From contig VBBN01000035.1 in NCBI GenBank assembly GCA_005888735.1, positions 11,671-75,670 of the forward strand: 64,000 nucleotides of DNA. The letters run 5' to 3'. The notes below the pieces were generated by a model. It was not told where the DNA came from and searched no databases. It saw only the letters and a program-made list of their open reading frames with translations. The stretch is from Candidatus Bathyarchaeota archaeon (GTDB lineage: Archaea > Thermoproteota > Bathyarchaeia > 40CM-2-53-6). The position numbers and the translations under genes are program-made. Numbering within the stretch: the stretch's first letter is position 1; each line of letters starts with the position of its first letter. Below, in pieces: positions 27,858-40,477 of this stretch.

Positions 27858-29681
27858 TCACTGGTCAATCATGGGTCCCAAAGGTTTCGACAGTTTGTTT
27901 GTCGTGGGCATATCGATGACTGACATTGCGACGTTCTTCGAGGGTGTCTGCCCCTGCAGCGGAATAGGGGGAGGGGGTGCTGAACCTAGGAAAACTGCTT
28001 TCGATGACACGTCGGCACCAAGCTCGGGAGCTGTTCTGATTACGAAACCCCCGATTATTCTCACCAGAGCTGCGAAGAGAAACAGGTAGGCCCCCAGGCC
28101 ATATCCCCAGTTGACCATGGTCGTTCCTACCACGTCGAATTGTTGGCTTGCACTTCCGGAGACAGGATTTCCTGCGACTGCTCGCACAAGTGAGTCCAGT
28201 TGAGGTGGAATGTTCGTTCCCGGGAGTAGCCCTGACGCCAGCGGAAGGAAACTTGGTAACTGGTTGATGAAAACGAAGATTAGGATAAAGGGCAGAAGCG
28301 AGCTGATTGCTCCCAGGATGAATTTCGAGCCTAGTCTTCGTCCATTCTTGACTCCGATAATGTCTAGGGCAAGCAGGGCAGTTCCAACGGCCAGAAATAT
28401 TGCGAACGGAATTTGCAGAAGGAACAATGTCGTGAATCCTGAAGTTGAATCACCGCCCGCACCCGTGAACAGGTTAACCTGCACTCCGTGGATTCCATCG
28501 ATGCTCAACAGTGTGACACTTCCGTGTTGAGCAAGCGGTCCTGACTGTGAAGAAGCGGATATGGAGTACCAAGGTAGGAAGAGTGCGACGACCGTAATGA
28601 CGATTGCTACTGCTCCGAATAGCAATCCGATGAGACCTCGGCTCTTCAAGAACTTGCCAAACAGCAAACCTCCCTTCCGGTGAAGCCTAGCGATTCCCAC
28701 GACCTTCCAAGCCCCCCTAACTGCAAGATATGCGGCTACGATGACGACGAGATAGGCGGCGAGAAAAGCGAGAATGAAATAGTTCCCATCAACTCCCAGA
28801 GTAGAGCTAAGGTAGGACTGGGGCTGGGACCATCTGGTTCCGCCTTGGTTGAAGACGGGTCCAAGGGGCCCGGCCCTTCCGAGGACGATTTCTTGATCCG
28901 TCCCGACATATCCCCATCGCCCGGGGAAATCCAGCCAGCTCTGGTCGGAAGTGTGGGAGCCTTTCTCTCCTAAGAGAACAAGTTTGAGGTTGGCAGGGTT
29001 TATCGTTGGGCCGCTATTCTGGACGACATCGTTCTCTACTCCGATTTTTCCTTGGTAGGGTCTGAAATAGTTGGCGTGTGATCCTTGGGCAACATAGACG
29101 ACTGGATGGGTATCTGACTTTTCCACATCGTTCCATGCAGCGTTCTCGCCCGCACCGTGTTGCGAGTACAGTGCGTGTTGAGGGCTGCCAGATGAGTCAA
29201 GGAAAAGTTCAACAACCTCCAAGTCACCTTCATGGTCGTTGAGCGGCCCATTGTTGTACGCGTAGAATAGCCAGTACTGAATAACCGTTGAAGCGGTCCC
29301 ATTAGCGACATGAACATATGTGAAATATCCAAGGCTGCCGACTTTGGATGAGTAGTCATTGGCTATGGCGTCGCGAGTTCCCAGCTTGTTATCAAGGAAG
29401 TAATCCGTCGAGTTGTATGTTCCAAGATTTGATGGAGTTGGGCCCGGGTTGACCAACGTCGATGAGCCGTTGACTAACCTCTGTTTTAGAGCGGAGGCTC
29501 CGATGAGATAGTCTACAGATGTAGGAAAGAATCTCTCACCGGAAGTAAAGTGTAGAACGGGCGCGAAGGTTGAGGCTAGAGACGATGAGCTTTGAGCCCG
29601 CGCAGGAGAAGAACTGTCAAGGCCAGCAAGTGCCGGGAGTAGCAGGATAAGGAGGACGAGGAGCAGGCAAGTCTTCCACAA
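27858..29681 (-). CDS. membrane-anchored exported protein with an N-terminal Vps62/DUF946-like domain and a C-terminal polytopic region
   Basis: Signal peptide MWKTCLLLVLLILLLPALAG. Motif IQYWLFYAYNNGPLNDHEGDLEVVELF matches the Vps62 signature YWFFYPFN...HEGDWEH. C-terminal multi-TM segment. Confidence 0.5.
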   Translation of the reverse strand: MWKTCLLLVLLILLLPALAGLDSSSPARAQSSSSLASTFAPVLHFTSGERFFPTSVDYLIGASALKQRLVNGSSTLVNPGPTPSNLGTYNSTDYFLDNKLGTRDAIANDYSSKVGSLGYFTYVHVANGTASTVIQYWLFYAYNNGPLNDHEGDLEVVELFLDSSGSPQHALYSQHGAGENAAWNDVEKSDTHPVVYVAQGSHANYFRPYQGKIGVENDVVQNSGPTINPANLKLVLLGEKGSHTSDQSWLDFPGRWGYVGTDQEIVLGRAGPLGPVFNQGGTRWSQPQSYLSSTLGVDGNYFILAFLAAYLVVIVAAYLAVRGAWKVVGIARLHRKGGLLFGKFLKSRGLIGLLFGAVAIVITVVALFLPWYSISASSQSGPLAQHGSVTLLSIDGIHGVQVNLFTGAGGDSTSGFTTLFLLQIPFAIFLAVGTALLALDIIGVKNGRRLGSKFILGAISSLLPFILIFVFINQLPSFLPLASGLLPGTNIPPQLDSLVRAVAGNPVSGSASQQFDVVGTTMVNWGYGLGAYLFLFAALVRIIGGFVIRTAPELGADVSSKAVFLGSAPPPPIPLQGQTPSKNVAMSVIDMPTTNKLSKPLGPMIDQ

Positions 29682-33531: not shown

Positions 33532-35784
33532 TTGAAGAGTCTAGGCTGGGTTTTCGACCTTTACCATCAAAACGGCCAGATGATAGTCTGGCTGAAGAAA
33601 GATAACGGTAGCTGCGTACGGCTCGTTGACCAGTGGAGGCCACGAGTCTACATCGCAGGCGAAACTCGAGATCTACTAGAGCTCGCTTGCAGGGACGAGT
33701 TTACCACGTCACGGCTTGTTTGGAAATATGAGCAGCCTGGCGACATTGAAAAGACTCGAGCATTGGAAGTAGAGGTCGAAGGCGATCGTGAAGCCTTAGC
33801 GCTCGCGGAGAGAATCGAGAGAAACGGCCGCTATTCCATGTTCCGTCTCTACAATGTTGATATTCCACCATCCCAAATGTACCTCTACGAGAAAAACCTC
33901 TTTCCACTCGCATACGTGGAAGTGGAACAATGCGAAGGAAAGGTTCACTGGTCACTAAAAGATTCGAGAGAAGCGGTAGACTATGAACTCCCACATTTCA
34001 AAACCATCACAGTCCAAGTAAAGACAGCGACCGATAGAAGGATCCAAGGCTTCGCAGACGAGCTTAAGTCTTTACGCATTTCCTCCGAGGATGAAGCTCT
34101 AACGATAGATTCTGGCAGCGAGGCTGAGAAGCTCGCAGAAACCTCCAAGGCATTCCAAGAATTAGACCCTGATATTGTTCGCACAGAAGGCGGAGACTCT
34201 TTCATCTTTCCCTACCTGGCCGGTAGAGCTCGAAAGAACAATGTCCTCGCCAAGCTTGTGCTGGGCCGCGAGCCCTCACCCCTCAACGTGTACAGCGTGC
34301 AGGGGCACAGCTACTTCTCGTATGGAAAGATACTGTACCGTGAGACAGCAGTCCGGCTCCCAGGAAGGCTGCACCTAGACCAGACGAACGCCTACATCAG
34401 CAACGACTGCGACCTTGAGGGACTCTTCGAAGTCTCGAGAACTTGCATAATCCCAGTCCAACGCGCGTCAAGAGCAACAATCGGGACGAGCATGACCTCG
34501 CTCCAACTCTACAACGCTGTAAAACAGGAGGTCCTCATTCCCTGGAACAAGAACAAGGCTGAAGACTGGAAGAGAGACGAGGAACTGATCGTCGCTGATA
34601 GAGGGGGCTTCATCTACGAACCCCAAACAGGCGTCCACGACAATATCGGAGAGCTGGACTTTTCCTCCCTCTACCCAATGGTTATGCTACAACAAAACTT
34701 GAGCGGAGAAACCGTTGGATGCTCCTGCTGCCGTGATTCTGCCTACAGAGTCCCGGAACTAGGCTACAACATATGCCAGCGCTGGCAGGGCATCGTCCCG
34801 CGCAGCCTCGAAATTCTCCTCGCGAAAAGAGCAGCCTACAAGAAACTCAAAGAAAACGCGGACCCACCACCCGCGGAGGTATATTCGAAACGCCAAGCCG
34901 CGCTGAAATGGATCCTAGTCTGCTCATAGCCGCCTAGTAAGCGGCGGGCAATCGGCTACCTGGGGTTCAAGAACGCTCGGTTCGGAAAAATTGACGCGCA
35001 CATTGCAACCTGCGCCTTCTCTCGGAGGGTATTGAAACAAGCGATAGAAATCGTGGAAGCGCACGGGTTCGAAATAGTTCACGCTATTGTGGACTCAATG
35101 TGGCTTCGCAAGCCCGGATCCACTCGAGAGGAGTACGAGGACGTCTGCGAGGAGCTTAGAGACCGATTGAACCTTCCCATCAGCTTCGAAGGCCGGTATA
35201 AATGGATCGTTTTCCTCAACTCAAAAGTTGACCGGCAAGCTGCAGTGCTGAACCGGTATTATGGAGTCTTCGAAGACAAGACTTTGAAAGTTAGAGGGAT
35301 AGAATTGAGAAAACACGACACGCCGAGAATAGTGCAGAGGTGTCAAGACAAGATGCTGAAAGTATTCTCTAAAGCCTCCGATTCGCAAGAGTTCCACGAA
35401 CTAGTTCCCGAGGCCTTGAAAGTGCTCATAGAGCATGTTTCAATGGTTAGACAAGACAAAATTCCGATAGAGGATTTGGTTGTTGTCAAGAGTCTGAGCA
35501 AGAACCCCGGAGAGTACACGAACCTTGTCCCCCAGGCCATCGCGGCTCGACAGATTCAGAGAGAAGGAGGCTCGGTCCATTGTGGACAGAGCATCAGTTA
35601 CGTTCTCACATTCGACAAGTCCAGCGTAGAAAACAACCGTGCCAGGCCCTCACAGCTCTTGGATGAGAGCACACCCTATGACAAGCTGTGGTACGAGGAT
35701 CTGCTAGTCTCTTCTGCAGCGAACCTCTTGATGCCCTTCGGACTTGACAAGGTGCAAATCAAACATCTACTCCATGACGGCTAG
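33532..35784 (+). CDS. family-B DNA polymerase homolog with degenerate catalytic motif C (inactivated PolB-like), interrupted by one in-frame TAG at 34927-34929
   Basis: Motif A DFSSLYPMVM. Motif B region AIGYLGFKNARFG lies immediately after the TAG in the same frame. Motif C is HAIVDS instead of YxDTDS. The two ORFs (33532..34929 and 35032..35784) share one frame. Confidence 0.75.
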
Positions 35785-35914: not shown

Positions 35915-36442
35915 ATGTCCAAATCTGCATCAACCAGCTTCATCTTCGCCAACTGCAAAGGTGCTATCACCAATACCATAAACCAGATACGAAGAATCAG
36001 CAACGTCGAAACTGTGACACCCGTCACTGGCCGTTTCGACCTCGTCATCAAGCTCCGAACTAACGAGCCAACGAAAGCCTTCAACGTGCTTGAGAGAATC
36101 AGAGGTATCAAAAACATCACTAACACTCAGACAGCGCTATCCTTCCAATCTATTTCGAGCGGGACTTCGAGGGCTTCGGAAGAGGACGAGCAACCTCTCG
36201 CCTTTGCGCTAGTGAAGGTGAAAGGGGCTTTCCAGAATGTTCTTCGAAGGATCAAGTCCTTCCCGAACTTTCTAGAGGCTCATGTGATCCCTGGAGAGTT
36301 CGACGTCGTCGCCGCTTTCAAAGGCTACAGCCACGAGGAGCTCTTGGAGAATTCCGTTGAGAAGCTCAACACTATCAATGGAATAACCTCTAGCGAGACC
36401 CTCATCGCCTGGAACCCCACCAACGCCACCAGCACATACTAA
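35915..36442 (+). CDS. stand-alone tandem RAM (Lrp/AsnC C-terminal ligand-binding) domain protein
   Basis: Two repeats resembling the AsnC-type regulatory fold (…GRFDLVIKLRTNEP…, …GEFDVVAAFKGYSHEEL…). No HTH. Confidence 0.45.
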   Translation: MSKSASTSFIFANCKGAITNTINQIRRISNVETVTPVTGRFDLVIKLRTNEPTKAFNVLERIRGIKNITNTQTALSFQSISSGTSRASEEDEQPLAFALVKVKGAFQNVLRRIKSFPNFLEAHVIPGEFDVVAAFKGYSHEELLENSVEKLNTINGITSSETLIAWNPTNATSTY

Positions 36443-36525
36443 ACTCGGCCTGGAAGCCAGAACTCAGCTTCCTTCTCCTTTTTTTTCTTGACTAACCTGT
36501 TGTTGAAGTCTTAACCGGTTTTTTT

Positions 36526-37563
36526 TCACCGCGCTGCGATTTTCCTGTTAGACCTCTGATTTCGTGAGGATAGACTCCCATCGTCCACTGCAAGTAATCC
36601 ACTCGCCCAAGTCGCGGGTTCCGGTTCAGCATAGTCGCAACGTCCTTCAAGGGTTACTTGAGAGCCCTCAATTCTTGCGGGTGCATGGGCAGCTCGGAGC
36701 AATATGTTCTCCATTTCCCTGTTACGTGATTGGAGAGTTGTCGTGAGGATGATTGTTTCTGTTTGTTCCGCGATCGCTCTTAGGAGCCTGACGCCTTTGG
36801 CGAAAAGGTTGATAGATTCTTTCGCGTTTTTTACATCGGGGTCACAGTAGAGCTGCGTTATGTCTGAAACAACGGTGAACTTCGTGTTGTAGCGGTCTAT
36901 TCCATTGCGAAGTCGGGTGACAAGTGAATCCACTTGGTGGTGTGTGAAAGCCCTGCTGAGATGAATACGCTCATGTACCTTCCTATGATCTAAACCAAGG
37001 ATTGTTGCATAATGGTCTATTGCGTAAGAGTCGAACATGTTTCCGCCATCGATGAAAATGCAGTCACTGTTAAGACCCTCAGGCTCTGGAAGGATGGCCC
37101 TTACGCAAAGTAGGTGGCTGAAGCTAAGTGATGGCTCTCCATGAAGAGAGACTAGTTGCCCTTTCCTAATTACGAGGACCCGGTCGAAGTATTCGACCCC
37201 TGTTCTCAGGCTTTGCCTCAAGTTCCGCGTCAAACGATTACCCCTCACGAGGCTTAGAGTGAAAGGATCTGAGGGCGGGACAATACTGTCTGGGTCAGAG
37301 CAGTTGGTATTGGTGTAGAGAGCTGCTCCATCCGGGACTTTGAAAGGGTCGCGTTTTAGGTTGTTTTCTAGCTCGAAGCCGCATCCGGGGCACGTGTTAT
37401 CGAAGATAAGGACTATTTTGAGGGGATGGATATCTCTCGCTGTGAGGATTAGAGCTTCATCGCATAAACCGCAGTAGTAGAGTTGCCCTTGTGCTCCTTT
37501 TTCAGGCTGGTTTATTTGCCATGTTTTTGGTGCGAGCGGTTGCCCAGTTAGCTTTGCTGCCAT
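36526..37563 (-). CDS. RadA/RadB-like RecA-fold paralog with N-terminal zinc ribbon and degenerate Walker A (predicted ATPase-inactive)
   Basis: CGLC...CPGC at the N-terminus. LHGEPSLSFSHLLC where GPPGSGKT is expected. Retains IDGGNMFD, VVSDITQLY and TIILTTTLQS RadB-like blocks. Immediately downstream of radA. Confidence 0.5.
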   Translation of the reverse strand: MAAKLTGQPLAPKTWQINQPEKGAQGQLYYCGLCDEALILTARDIHPLKIVLIFDNTCPGCGFELENNLKRDPFKVPDGAALYTNTNCSDPDSIVPPSDPFTLSLVRGNRLTRNLRQSLRTGVEYFDRVLVIRKGQLVSLHGEPSLSFSHLLCVRAILPEPEGLNSDCIFIDGGNMFDSYAIDHYATILGLDHRKVHERIHLSRAFTHHQVDSLVTRLRNGIDRYNTKFTVVSDITQLYCDPDVKNAKESINLFAKGVRLLRAIAEQTETIILTTTLQSRNREMENILLRAAHAPARIEGSQVTLEGRCDYAEPEPATWASGLLAVDDGSLSSRNQRSNRKIAAR

Positions 37564-37584
37564 TCCGGGCCCAATTGAGCGTTC

Positions 37585-38556
37585 CTAGTCGTCTCGCTTG
37601 TTTCTCGGGGTTGCATCTTCGACTCCTTTCTCTGTAATTTGGAAGTAGTTTTCCGACTCGGGGAGGTATGGTGAGTCGATTATTTTCGCGATGCGTATTC
37701 CGCCGGAGGCTTTCTTTAGCATGACTCTGTGCGTGGAAGCGTGGGCGAGAATGTTTCCTCCTGCAGGCCGCATAGGGTCTCCAAAGAATGCTTGAGGGTT
37801 GGCTTGTACTTGGTTGGTGATGACTACTGCGAGATTGAGTGCTTGGGCGATTCGGAGGAGTTTGTGGAGGTGGCTGTTGAGGCGTTGTTGTCGTTCGGCG
37901 AGGCTTTCTCGGCCGATGTATTCGCCTCTGAAGTGGCTTAGGATTGAGTCGACTACCATGAGTTTTACGTTCTCTTCTTTGCAGATTTTGAAGGAATGGT
38001 CTACTGTGAGAATTTGATGGTCGCTATTGTAGGCTCGACTGTATATTATTCCGTCGAGTACTTTCTCAGGGTCGAGTTGTAGGCTTTGCGCCATTTGATG
38101 GACTCTCTGGGCGCTGAAAGTTCCTTCAGTGTCAATAAAGAGGACTCGTCCTTCTAGTCCACCGTCTTTGTTTAGTTGTTGGGCGTTGACGCTGAGCCTC
38201 ATGCATATCTGTGACTTTCCTGCTCCAAACTCTCCAACGAATTCGGTGATCGCCTGTGTTTCAAGGCCCCCTCCTAGTAGCTTGTTGAGGTTGTTGCTGC
38301 CGAAGCTGAGACGCTGGAGGGTTTGACGTCTCTCCCAGAGCTGTTTGGCTGTCACGAAGTCTGTATGGATTGTTTGACGTGCAGCACGGCTGATTTTGAG
38401 AGCTGTGCTGTGTTCGAGGTTGGCCTTTTCGACCAGTTCCTTTATGGGTGCTATGGCGAGGCTTTCGACGCTGTCGAAGCCTGCTTCGTGGAGTTTGCCG
38501 GCGGTTACTGGTCCAACGCCATCAAGGTCTTGGATGTCAGCTATTTCTGTGGACAA
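37585..38556 (-). CDS. radA: DNA repair and recombination protein RadA
   Basis: N-terminal HhH (LDGVGPVTAGKL), Walker A GEFGAGKSQ, 323 aa. Typical archaeal RadA. Confidence 0.9.
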   Translation of the reverse strand: MSTEIADIQDLDGVGPVTAGKLHEAGFDSVESLAIAPIKELVEKANLEHSTALKISRAARQTIHTDFVTAKQLWERRQTLQRLSFGSNNLNKLLGGGLETQAITEFVGEFGAGKSQICMRLSVNAQQLNKDGGLEGRVLFIDTEGTFSAQRVHQMAQSLQLDPEKVLDGIIYSRAYNSDHQILTVDHSFKICKEENVKLMVVDSILSHFRGEYIGRESLAERQQRLNSHLHKLLRIAQALNLAVVITNQVQANPQAFFGDPMRPAGGNILAHASTHRVMLKKASGGIRIAKIIDSPYLPESENYFQITEKGVEDATPRNKRDD

Positions 38557-38740: not shown

Positions 38741-39358
38741 ATGGAAGACCGTTTCCGAAACCCCCTTGCTGATGTAGTTGCTGCACGTTATGCATCTCAC
38801 ACCTCGCTGTACAGGGCCGCACTGAAGGACACAAGGTTCTCCTCAGGCTTCGGAATGTATCCTGACACGTACAGGCCTAAGACAGGAGGTTCGCTGGCTT
38901 GGGTCCTGGTCAAGTTCGGCTTTGTCGGAGGACTGGGCATTTTTCTCAATACGTACATCCTCTACCTCCTCACAGGACTTTACACTGAAAGATTCCTGTT
39001 GCCAAACGCTGTAGTCAGCAGCGAGGCTGCGATTCTAGCTAACTTCTCCTTGAACGAGCTGTTGGTGTTCAGGGCTCGGAACGGGAGTAGCCTGGTCCAT
39101 CGGATTCTGCTCTTCAACTTGGTCTCGTCTGCGGACCTGGTGTTGAGGCTTCCCCTCTTGTGGGGTTTGACGACTTTTCTGAACGTTCAATATTTGAGGT
39201 CCAATCTTTATGCGATACTCTTGACTTTTGGGGCTCGGTTTGTTATTAGCGAGAAAAAGATATGGTCGAAAGCTGCTAGTAATGCCGAACGAAAGCTTCC
39301 ACAGAATGCACGAGGTCCAGCCATGGCTGAACCTGCAACTGATACAGCTCACCACTAG
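38741..39358 (+). CDS. GtrA-family membrane protein (putative)
   Basis: Four-TM profile with FVGGLGIFLNTYILYLL and ANFSLNELLVF, resembling the GtrA signature. Confidence 0.45.
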   Translation: MEDRFRNPLADVVAARYASHTSLYRAALKDTRFSSGFGMYPDTYRPKTGGSLAWVLVKFGFVGGLGIFLNTYILYLLTGLYTERFLLPNAVVSSEAAILANFSLNELLVFRARNGSSLVHRILLFNLVSSADLVLRLPLLWGLTTFLNVQYLRSNLYAILLTFGARFVISEKKIWSKAASNAERKLPQNARGPAMAEPATDTAHH

Positions 39359-40001
39359 GTGTCCGGGAGAATTCTGAAACGCTTTTCCTCACGAGGTCGT
39401 CGACTATCATTACTCGTTTCTTTACGTAGTCGCTCTTCTCAGCGACGGGCAATTGCCCGAAAACCTGTGGGGCAGCGAGTCGGACGGAAGCGTACATGGC
39501 CCATGCTAGGTCACGGATTTCCCACTGGGCGTCGGCGGCACAACGCAGGTTGAAGAAGTGCAACAGTTGGCGGGGGCTCATGCTCATGACAATGTTGGTC
39601 GTAGCGGCGTTTGGCCGGAGGTAGCGGCTGTCTTCCGCTTTGACACCTCTCTGGACGAGTTCTTCTTCAGCTTGACGGGTCAAGTCCATCACGTCGGCGA
39701 AGCTCAGCTCTAGTTTTTGCTTGTTAATTTCGACCGGGACCCGGAGATTGTCTGGTATGCTGGGAGGTTTGAGGTAGCCATAGCTACGGGTGATTTTCAC
39801 GTAGCGCTGGCTTTGCTGGCTAAAGCTGGCGACTCTGTGTCGGACGATTTGATGGCTTGCGGCTCGGCTAACACCTTGGAGGTCGAAGGTGAAGCTGCCG
39901 TGCCGGTGAAGGTCTTCGTTTGCGAACTTTACGCCTCGGACTTGGAGTGCGCGTATGAGATGCGGATAGTCAGTGTAGCTGAAAAGTATCGACTTTGTCA
40001 T
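39276..40001 (-). CDS. thyX: flavin-dependent thymidylate synthase ThyX
   Basis: ThyX motif SHQIVRHRVASFSQQSQRY (RHRxxSxxxxSxRY) and FNLRCAADAQWEIRDLAWAMY. 241 aa. Confidence 0.8.
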   Translation of the reverse strand: MTKSILFSYTDYPHLIRALQVRGVKFANEDLHRHGSFTFDLQGVSRAASHQIVRHRVASFSQQSQRYVKITRSYGYLKPPSIPDNLRVPVEINKQKLELSFADVMDLTRQAEEELVQRGVKAEDSRYLRPNAATTNIVMSMSPRQLLHFFNLRCAADAQWEIRDLAWAMYASVRLAAPQVFGQLPVAEKSDYVKKRVMIVDDLVRKSVSEFSRTPSGELYQLQVQPWLDLVHSVEAFVRHY

Positions 40002-40477
40002 CGCGAGCCTAGCTCTTTTGCTTCAGCTGAGAGAACGGATGAGACATTTGGCGCTGCGATAGTCAGGGATGAGACGAGTTCCTTGGTTAGGGAGGATTGT
40101 GTGTTGTTCCGAGCGAGTTCAACTAGGACGCGGAGGTTGGTGGTGATCAGCCAACTGCCCTCATCGAGCCGGCTGGTTTCGAAGAACTTTGATGAGTTCA
40201 GGAGAGAGAGAATTTCCTCTTCTTTTGCCTCAGCGAGCCAGGTGATACTGTTGTGTTCTAGGATGTCATAGTGACCGAGTTCGAGGGCGCGTCTTAGGAG
40301 ACCGCTGATTCTTTCAGAGTCGAACACCTTCTCGCCCTCGAGGGTCCTGTCCGGGTTTGTATGAGTGAACAGTTCGTAGCCGGGGTGCGGTGAATAGCAG
40401 CTGCGCATGGCAGCTGCGCACACACGTTCCAGGTCAGGCTCATAGGCTACGAGGTGGGCACGCAAAGTGAAACTCAT
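39998..40477 (-). CDS. truncated ThyX-like domain protein lacking the RHR/SxRY catalytic motif
   Basis: N-terminal ThyX-like blocks (ERVCAAAMRSCYS, GHYDILEHNSITW) and C-terminal TNLRVLVELARN, but no RHR motif. 4-nt ATGA overlap with thyX. Confidence 0.45.
   Translation of the reverse strand: MSFTLRAHLVAYEPDLERVCAAAMRSCYSPHPGYELFTHTNPDRTLEGEKVFDSERISGLLRRALELGHYDILEHNSITWLAEAKEEEILSLLNSSKFFETSRLDEGSWLITTNLRVLVELARNNTQSSLTKELVSSLTIAAPNVSSVLSAEAKELGSR

Follow-up and report, generated by a model that had tools for sequence, protein, structure and literature searches.

The protein described here is encoded directly downstream of radA in a 64,000-nucleotide (nt) stretch of DNA from a Candidatus Bathyarchaeota archaeon (contig VBBN01000035.1 of assembly GCA_005888735.1, positions 11,671 to 75,670), which is hereafter referred to as the window. 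Judged from its sequence, this 345-amino-acid (aa) protein belongs to the published family of inactivated RadA homologues named iRadA, and it quite likely serves as the catalytically dead, RadA-fold subunit of a PolB2 (Dpo2-type) translesion/extender polymerase complex. The protein was identified as an iRadA because PolB2, not RadA, is its conserved partner across lineages. The family is known, and the domain and operon architecture found in the window (zinc ribbon, coupling to radA, no PPB2) is a variant of it. A first-pass annotation of the window regarded the protein as a predicted recombination mediator, an annotation possibly new for this lineage; the family had already been published (PMC4104785, PMC11791011), and the opposite-strand PolB2 gene that lies 741 nt further downstream had been missed.

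A conserved iRadA-PPB2-PolB2 operon, also called the "mutasome", has been described by Makarova et al. 2014 (PMC4104785) and by Timinskas, Timinskas and Venclovas 2025 (PMC11791011). In these papers, PolB2 is also named Dpo2, PPB2 (arCOG07300) is a small helical protein with a conserved MGRT N-terminus, and iRadA is an inactivated RadA homologue (arCOG07763/arCOG04294/arCOG08101), an example being WP_012710852 of Sulfolobus islandicus. AlphaFold models predict a PolB2-iRadA-(PPB2)3 complex, in which a beta-alpha motif of PolB2, preceding the D(K/R) motif, mimics the oligomerisation motif of RadA and binds iRadA (PMC11791011). Many iRadAs also carry a C-terminal clamp-binding motif, which is frequent rather than obligatory (PMC11791011).

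The genes and domains that concern this finding are located in the window as follows.

37585..38556, minus strand: radA, 323 aa, with a helix-hairpin-helix (HhH) N-terminal domain, the polymerisation motif FVTA and the Walker A motif GEFGAGKS
37564..37584, minus strand: spacer between radA and iRadA, 21 nt, read directly from the sequence
36526..37563, minus strand: iRadA, 345 aa, an inactivated homologue of RadA that carries a zinc ribbon at its N-terminus
37279..37536, minus strand: zinc-ribbon domain of iRadA, aa 10-95, Cys 31/34/58/61
36649..37227, minus strand: Rad51/RadA-fold core of iRadA without the ATP site, aa 113-305
37111..37146, minus strand: P-loop remnant of iRadA, LHGEPSLSFSHL, aa 140-151
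36529..36648, minus strand: disordered C-terminal tail of iRadA, aa 306-345, sublineage-specific
33532..35784, plus strand: polB2, whole gene, convergent with iRadA

The radA gene encodes a bona fide recombinase (NF003301, 441 bits with a cutoff of 259; TIGR02236, 412 bits; Pfam Rad51, 281 bits) and shows 81-84% identity to related Bathyarchaeia loci. The 345-aa open reading frame (ORF) follows it on the same strand after the 21-nt gap, as had been stated in the first-pass annotation, and the two genes are probably co-transcribed. The polB2 gene lies on the opposite strand and converges with iRadA, 741 nt from its stop codon.

Gene neighbourhoods of the relatives

The neighbours were mapped in 34 species-level loci encoding relatives of iRadA. 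PolB2 was found within 3 kilobases (kb) in 27 of them, either downstream on the same strand or in convergent orientation. Among the seven loci without PolB2, six end less than 1.5 kb downstream or hold only a fragment of a gene; the other one, L002, has 5 kb of downstream sequence and no polymerase. The radA gene was found directly upstream of the homologue in 21 of the 34 loci, with a spacing of 23-77 nt, and PolB2 still lies within 0.2-1.2 kb in the radA-linked loci. A degenerate partner beside radA in related archaea, for which the first-pass annotation had suggested a survey, is present in these 21 loci, and the neighbour seen in 27 loci is PolB2.

The gene order differs among the groups of relatives. 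In the divergent contig L042, radA, iRadA, PPB2 and polB2 are arranged in this order on one strand, and in L041, which is also divergent, the same order is found with other genes inserted before polB2 and a DUF8156 gene just downstream of the homologue. In the zinc-less subfamily (L025-L031, about 250 aa), the homologue is followed by an 84-aa gene beginning MGRTIPSW and then by the polymerase; no radA was seen in the 1-5 kb of upstream sequence available for these loci. A separate zinc-ribbon ORF was sought upstream of these short iRadAs, and none was found. The homologues of Nitrososphaeria, including that of Nitrosopumilus, are located upstream of the polymerase in all loci examined, with no radA nearby, and one or two DUF8156 genes are placed between the homologue and the polymerase in two of three loci. 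The family profile matches Nitrosopumilus P0263 with an E value of 2.6e-21; this locus has the order iRadA-PPB2-PPB2-PolB2, and its PPB2 pair comprises the sequences of the published type-2 operon, which L036 also matches. A PPB2 with the MGRT N-terminus was found between the homologue and PolB2 in L015, L025-L031, L034, L035-L037, L040 and L042. The zinc-ribbon form of iRadA is common in both Bathyarchaeia and Nitrososphaeria. An N-terminal arm of the soil-clade proteins, 'MxTRxxEPLxxKTWQ', was considered as a replacement for the MGRT arm of PPB2 and was rejected, since the arm and PPB2 occur together in L015 and are both missing from L022.

The published neighbours of the PolB2 operon are orc1/cdc6, lexA, SRAP and DUF72, and radA is not listed among them (PMC11791011). 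The link to radA observed here is too conserved to be a chance arrangement, yet it is not a defining trait of the family. Three readings agree with it: co-regulation in the damage response, a bridge between the RadA filament and PolB2, and a mediator of recombination. The last is the role given in the first-pass annotation, and it would mean that the dead paralog is dedicated to RadA, acting on RadA monomers or filament ends in the manner of RadB, Rad55-57, Shu or the RAD51 paralogs to modulate strand exchange, with PolB2 being incidental. The spacing from radA (21 nt here, and 23-77 nt in the 21 of 34 Bathyarchaeia loci), the position of radA directly upstream in L041 and L042, the looser link to polB2 in the window, where it lies on the opposite strand, and the RAD51-paralog capping complexes among the top Foldseek matches of iRadA are all in line with such a role. 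Nevertheless, we consider it improbable: the homologues of Nitrososphaeria and of the zinc-less Bathyarchaeia subfamily are beside PolB2 with no radA seen nearby, PolB2 is retained even where radA is linked, iRadA does not specifically resemble RadB, at 16.6 bits, or KaiC/aRadC, at 15.5 bits and under the cutoff, and PolB2 is specific for iRadA, not RadA, in the published modelling (PMC11791011). What stands of the earlier claim is that the adjacency to radA is real and conserved, so that some link to RadA is conceivable; the mediator role is not the best supported one, with PolB2 as the conserved partner.

Two other observations were made in these loci. One is that a second, very divergent PolB-like gene occurs directly upstream of the zinc-ribbon iRadA in L019 (2939-4888), L020 (2941-4890) and L034 (3757-4872); it has about 26% identity to the window PolB2, and radA is found another 4.9 kb upstream. 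In L034, PPB2 and the start of another polB2 are also present downstream. The other is that the contigs L018, L020, L023, L031 and L033, which carry radA-iRadA-polB2, are filed under metagenome-assembled genomes (MAGs) of Dormiibacterota, Acidoferrum, Acidiferrales or 'bacterium'; they are likely to be mis-binned contigs of Bathyarchaeia.

Domain structure and loss of the ATP site

All the motif strings quoted in the first-pass annotation were found in iRadA: LHGEPSLSFSHL at aa 140-151, IDGGNMFD at 171-178, VVSDITQLY at 231-239 and TIILTTTLQS at 270-279, together with the cysteine cluster C31-x2-C34...C58-x2-C61. Its assignment to the RecA fold was also borne out. Pfam Rad51 matches residues 118-275 with 35.7 bits (cutoff 22), and the family profile, built from 103 members, aligns with the window RadA in hhalign with a probability of 98% and an E value of 2e-13. 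In Foldseek, the core matches those of RadA, RAD51 and DMC1 with template-modelling (TM) scores of 0.73-0.76 and a root-mean-square deviation of 2.4 Å. The AlphaFold2 model has a mean predicted local distance difference test (pLDDT) value of 84.9 and consists of a zinc ribbon (aa ~10-95), a disordered linker, a RecA-type core (aa 113-305) and a disordered tail of 40 residues; the pLDDT values are about 90 or higher for aa 11-90, above 95 for most of the core and below 50 for the tail. The HhH domain is absent, and the zinc ribbon is present in its place. The zinc-ribbon domain itself matches no Pfam or NCBIfam family.

The hhalign alignment with RadA reveals how the ATP site was lost. GEFGAGKS of RadA corresponds to GEP---S of iRadA, where three residues are deleted and the Lys and the Ser/Thr are both missing; IDTEGTF is matched by IDGGNMF, in which the catalytic Glu is lost and Gly occurs instead; and VVDS corresponds to VVSD, in which the Walker B Asp is displaced. 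Furthermore, the DNA-binding loop L2 is shorter than that of RadA by 9 residues. From these residues, iRadA is predicted neither to bind nor to hydrolyse ATP, in agreement with the destroyed Walker A and ATPase-dead state recognized in the first-pass annotation. Since it is predicted to lack ATP binding and hydrolysis, and since the long L2 DNA-binding loop is missing, it should not be a recombinase.

The C-terminal end varies within the family. An LxxYL or LEEF-type motif occurs at the C-terminus of 125 of 258 relatives, while the window iRadA and its two closest relatives have a poorly constrained tail instead of the C-terminal strands and the PIP-like LxxYL of the family; in the window iRadA, the PIP-like LxxYL end (a motif for the PCNA clamp) is absent from the tail. 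A PIP motif or a family-type C-terminus hidden in another frame of the 3′ end of iRadA was also sought, and none was found. In addition, an FxxA-like polymerisation motif was considered in the linker (aa 100-112) and rejected: it had been hinted at by 'f..a' in the hhalign consensus, but this disordered segment shows no conservation of the residues concerned.

Conservation and selective constraint

In the family profile search, 417 clusters at 50% identity match with E values below 1e-10, which greatly exceeds what chance would give. The residues C31, C58 and C61 are invariant among the 103 sequences, and C34 is conserved in at least 90% of them; the motifs LCVRA, DGGNxFD, SRAFTxxQL and SDITxLYxDPD recur across the relatives. 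By contrast with RadA, GK[ST] was not found at the Walker A position in any of the 27 close homologues and the cluster representatives spanning this region. For the comparison with the orthologue at L044, a locus of 82% identity, the ratio of nonsynonymous to synonymous substitution rates (dN/dS) of iRadA is 0.25 overall; the zinc ribbon (0.18) and the core (0.21) are below this value and the tail (0.66) is above it. The value for radA is 0.04. The exact iRadA protein and its locus are found on at least 22 independent contigs, one of which, from another soil Bathyarchaeota MAG (NCBI GCA_005888795.1, VBBU01000031.1), shows 99.8% nucleotide identity. By its dN/dS, iRadA is under purifying selection.

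A functionless, decaying duplicate of radA, or an artefact of annotation or sequencing, might be suspected from the destroyed ATP site, the nearly neutral tail and the in-frame stop in the adjacent polB2. This explanation is effectively refuted by the conservation: hundreds of conserved homologues exist in two archaeal classes, the overall dN/dS is low, the AlphaFold2 fold is of high confidence, the locus is identical on the independent contigs, and the 'stop' of polB2 sits in a precisely excisable element (see below). Neither frameshift nor decay accounts for the missing ATP site, because no canonical P-loop was found in any family member examined and because of the dN/dS of 0.25. A frameshift or read error, which the first-pass annotation had named as a possible cause of the Walker A loss, is excluded by the state kept in all relatives and by the identity of the locus in the independent assemblies.

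The same values bear on the idea that iRadA is a nucleic-acid-binding regulator of radA or polB2 that acts through its zinc ribbon, the decayed RecA core being a scaffold only. The zinc ribbon is indeed the most constrained part and its cysteines are invariant or nearly so, and both PPB2 and the clamp motif are absent in the lineage of the window. However, the core is equally constrained and contains the most invariant motifs of the family, zinc-less members exist in the same gene context, and no helix-turn-helix or other known regulator domain was found in iRadA with Pfam and NCBIfam. Such a regulator seems highly improbable to us.

The polB2 gene and its candidate intron

The polB2 gene is divided as follows.

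33532..34927, plus strand: polB2 exon 1, with a degenerate exonuclease domain, motif A DFSSLYP, the LIPWN...ADRGG segment and the first half of motif B
34928..34951, plus strand: candidate bulge-helix-bulge (BHB) mini-intron, 24 nt, AGCCGCCTAGTAAGCGGCGGGCAA, which introduces an in-frame TAG
34952..35784, plus strand: polB2 exon 2, with the rest of motif B and motif C HAIVDSMWL

By its motifs, the family B polymerase of the window is assigned to PolB2. An orthologue of the gene matches the type-B polymerase models NF004416/NF004418. The region of motifs B and C reads ALKWILVCSFGYLGF...HAIVDSMWL, in which the first catalytic Asp of DxD is replaced ('IVD'), and this pattern matches the PolB2 rows of the published table (PMC11791011). 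The ExoI motif is FDLYH, with the Glu lost. The (V/I)LIPWN...ADRGG segment with the D(K/R) motif, which would correspond to the iRadA-binding region of the published models, is conserved in the alignment.

The in-frame TAG at 34927-34929 splits polB2 into ORFs of 465 aa and 250 aa inside motif B, where the window gene reads KWILVCS*PPSKRRAIGYLGF and the intact orthologues read KWILVCSFGYLGF. Excision of the 24 nt gives TCA TTC GGC (S-F-G) and an uninterrupted frame of 743 aa, with SFGYLGF being identical to that of the intron-less orthologues. Inserts were found at the same point in seven orthologues (L022, L027, L029, L030, L031, L041 and L042), while the others lack them; their lengths are 21, 23, 24 or 26 nt, of which 23 and 26 are not multiples of three. 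The insert of the window is identical in three independent assemblies.

A BHB motif fits all 8 insert sequences. It has an outer helix between the exons (UAGUC/GGCUA), a central helix of 4 bp (GCUC/G(G|A)GC) and bulges of 3 nt, AUA and AAU, at the two junctions. The inner helix covaries among the sequences (GCCGC/GCGGC, GCCG/CGGC, GCUGCC/GGCGGC, GUCGA/UCGAC, GGC/GCC), and compensatory change was recognized in two of its pairs, which are altered on both sides. RNAfold yields the BHB shape in five of the six sequences folded, and 97% of the cells are paired in the BHB alignment as compared with 22-55% for slid partners. Hence, the insert is predicted to be an mRNA intron that is probably removed by the splicing endonuclease, and polB2 is therefore probably functional. 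The only well-documented precedent that we found for a BHB intron in an archaeal mRNA is cbf5 (PMC2738675). A scan for intron-bearing tRNAs found no tRNA genes in the window.

In L014 (6887-6925), L016 (6496-6535) and L017 (2776-2815), one extra T was observed at the same polB2 codon (TCC TTT CGG versus TCA TTC GGC). The remainder of each gene is thereby out of frame; a frameshift common to the three, a pseudogene, an error in a homopolymer and recoding are all conceivable explanations.

Comparison with known systems

The window protein resembles the published iRadAs in several respects: it has a RadA/Rad51 core without HhH, the residues of the ATP site are lost, PolB2 is adjacent, its relatives are found in iRadA-PPB2-PolB2 and iRadA-PPB2-PPB2-PolB2 operons, and many of them end in a PIP-like motif. 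Five differences are also seen. One is the N-terminal four-Cys zinc ribbon of about 95 aa, whereas Sulfolobus iRadA simply lacks HhH. Another is that the gene is placed 21 nt directly downstream of a bona fide radA. The remaining three are that no PPB2 was detected in the window, that polB2 is inverted and that the clamp motif is absent from iRadA. In term searches, zinc was not mentioned in PMC11791011 and its supplements, and a zinc ribbon was not mentioned in connection with iRadA proteins in PMC4104785. In the literature searched, the N-terminal zinc ribbon, radA immediately upstream and the missing PPB2 at the locus are undescribed.

Likenesses to other RecA-fold proteins are more limited. 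Euryarchaeal RadB and crenarchaeal aRadC/Ral are short RadA paralogs without HhH and are implicated in recombination, but they have an intact Walker A and no linkage to PolB2, whereas iRadA has no P-loop. The first-pass annotation was right in setting the protein apart from canonical RadB: the RadB model TIGR02237 gives 16.6 bits for a cutoff of 172.4, and the KaiC model PF06745 gives 15.5 bits for a cutoff of 26.6. The eukaryotic RAD51 paralogs and Shu proteins are Rad51-fold accessory proteins, some with degenerate ATP sites, and iRadA matches RAD51D and RAD51-paralog complexes, among others, in sequence and structure searches; the role of these accessory proteins is, however, the mediation and capping of filaments and not a partnership with a polymerase. 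The special affinity to this group that the first-pass annotation had proposed was not recovered, as RadA, DMC1, RAD51 and RAD51D all score alike against iRadA. Bacterial RadA/Sms resembles iRadA in that a C4 zinc finger at the N-terminus precedes a RecA-like domain. It differs in that its Walker A is intact and in that it possesses the KNRFG motif and a Lon-like C-terminal domain, while iRadA ends in the disordered tail of 40 aa. TIGR00416 (bacterial RadA/Sms) gives no match to iRadA at E ≤ 1, and the Lon domain is absent. The shared domain order is convergent.

Two bacterial systems combine a recombinase fold with a polymerase. ImuA/ImuA' of the imuA-imuB-dnaE2 cassette is RecA-like, has no recombinase activity and is encoded in an operon with an error-prone polymerase; it can be likened to iRadA by this description, but its polymerase belongs to the C family, its adaptor is an inactive Y-family protein, and it has no zinc ribbon. 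The other is Pol V Mut of E. coli (UmuD'2C-RecA-ATP), which also contains a recombinase-fold subunit in a translesion polymerase; it has been argued that RecA is bound there through a mimic of the filament oligomerisation motif (PMC11791011). Pol V differs in using active RecA itself, ATP and a Y-family polymerase, whereas the window locus has a dedicated dead paralog and a B-family polymerase, the gene of the active recombinase being merely adjacent.

Proposed role of iRadA

We propose that iRadA would serve a damage-tolerance polymerase as a structural or targeting subunit, much as RecA is a subunit of Pol V in E. coli. The groove of iRadA equivalent to the one that receives the polymerisation motif of the neighbouring subunit in a RadA filament would take the beta-alpha motif of PolB2 (LIPWN...ADRGG) instead. 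From the literature, we infer by analogy that iRadA and PolB2 may bind each other physically and may act in damage-induced DNA synthesis.

Several points weigh against this proposal. A hidden Markov model (HMM) of PPB2 searched against the six frames of the 64-kb window gave nothing significant (best E value, 1.5), nor did it match beside most of the soil-clade relatives, being detected in L015 and in all the other groups. Since the PPB2 gene was not found, the heteropentamer of the published models could be assembled only with a PPB2 encoded at another place. In the clade of the window, the tight coupling of the iRadA gene is with radA rather than with polB2. The window polB2 lies on the opposite strand, and because the TAG-containing insert interrupts it, splicing would be required for its function. 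The published iRadA model does not explain the zinc ribbon, and the published evidence for the PolB2-iRadA complex itself consists of in silico modelling and co-expression.

The zinc ribbon may contact DNA or a protein; its function, like the reason for the coupling to radA, is a matter of speculation. One possibility, tentative and rather unlikely in our estimation, is that the zinc-ribbon iRadA physically couples PolB2 to the RadA filament in Bathyarchaeia. The arrangement with radA as the first gene of the operon (L042 and L041, and radA-iRadA with polB2 nearby in the soil clade) would reflect this coupling. One face of iRadA would hold PolB2, and its RadA-like surfaces or the zinc ribbon would dock on the ends of the RadA filament or on DNA, whereby the extender polymerase would be brought to gapped DNA or D-loops. 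For the soil clade without PPB2, an enzyme of two subunits would be envisaged.

Other genes in the window

Between iRadA and polB2, one further gene is located.

35915..36442, plus strand: double-RAM protein of 175 aa, RAM being the ligand-binding domain of Lrp/AsnC (PF01037 in two stretches, E 5e-16)

No helix-turn-helix was detected in this double-RAM protein, and the gene was found elsewhere only in L044-L047; it is probably not part of the PolB2/iRadA system. The convergent ends of this AsnC-like gene and of iRadA lie 83 nt apart (36443..36525), and oligo-T runs occur on both strands of this interval, which would fit archaeal terminators placed back to back. Of the ten larger ORFs that were scanned in the region of about 28-46 kb, none was orc1/cdc6, SRAP or DUF72 of the published PolB2 neighbourhood.

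Two observations concern genes outside this system. ThyX is encoded as two consecutive ORFs on the minus strand, 39998..40477 (159 aa) and 39276..40001 (241 aa), which overlap by 4 nt; Pfam Thy1 is covered at positions 2-64 by the 159-aa ORF and at positions 54-191 by the 241-aa ORF. The split is not an error, because it is kept in the 82%-identical L044 and in L045-L047, and ThyX may be two-piece or partially duplicated. Furthermore, a 607-aa ORF at 27858..29681 on the minus strand matches the Vps62 domain (PF06101, E 5e-12), which is typical of eukaryotes and unusual for an archaeon.

Implications

The main value of this analysis is a correct annotation: genes now labelled 'hypothetical' or 'Rad51' can be assigned to the iRadA subunit of the PolB2 polymerase, and they should not be read as a recombinase or RadB. 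If the polB2 intron is confirmed, polB2 would be a second protein-coding gene family beside cbf5 with such introns, and this would explain why polB2 genes are split or discarded in annotations. If iRadA does bridge PolB2 and the RadA filament, the system would be an archaeal B-family counterpart of Pol V activated by RecA*, or of recombination-associated DNA synthesis. The zinc-ribbon form, the apparently PPB2-less clade and the tie to radA are natural experiments on which subunits are essential to the PolB2 holoenzyme. These variant features bear on the make-up and targeting of that holoenzyme, and on the coupling between translesion synthesis and recombination in archaea.

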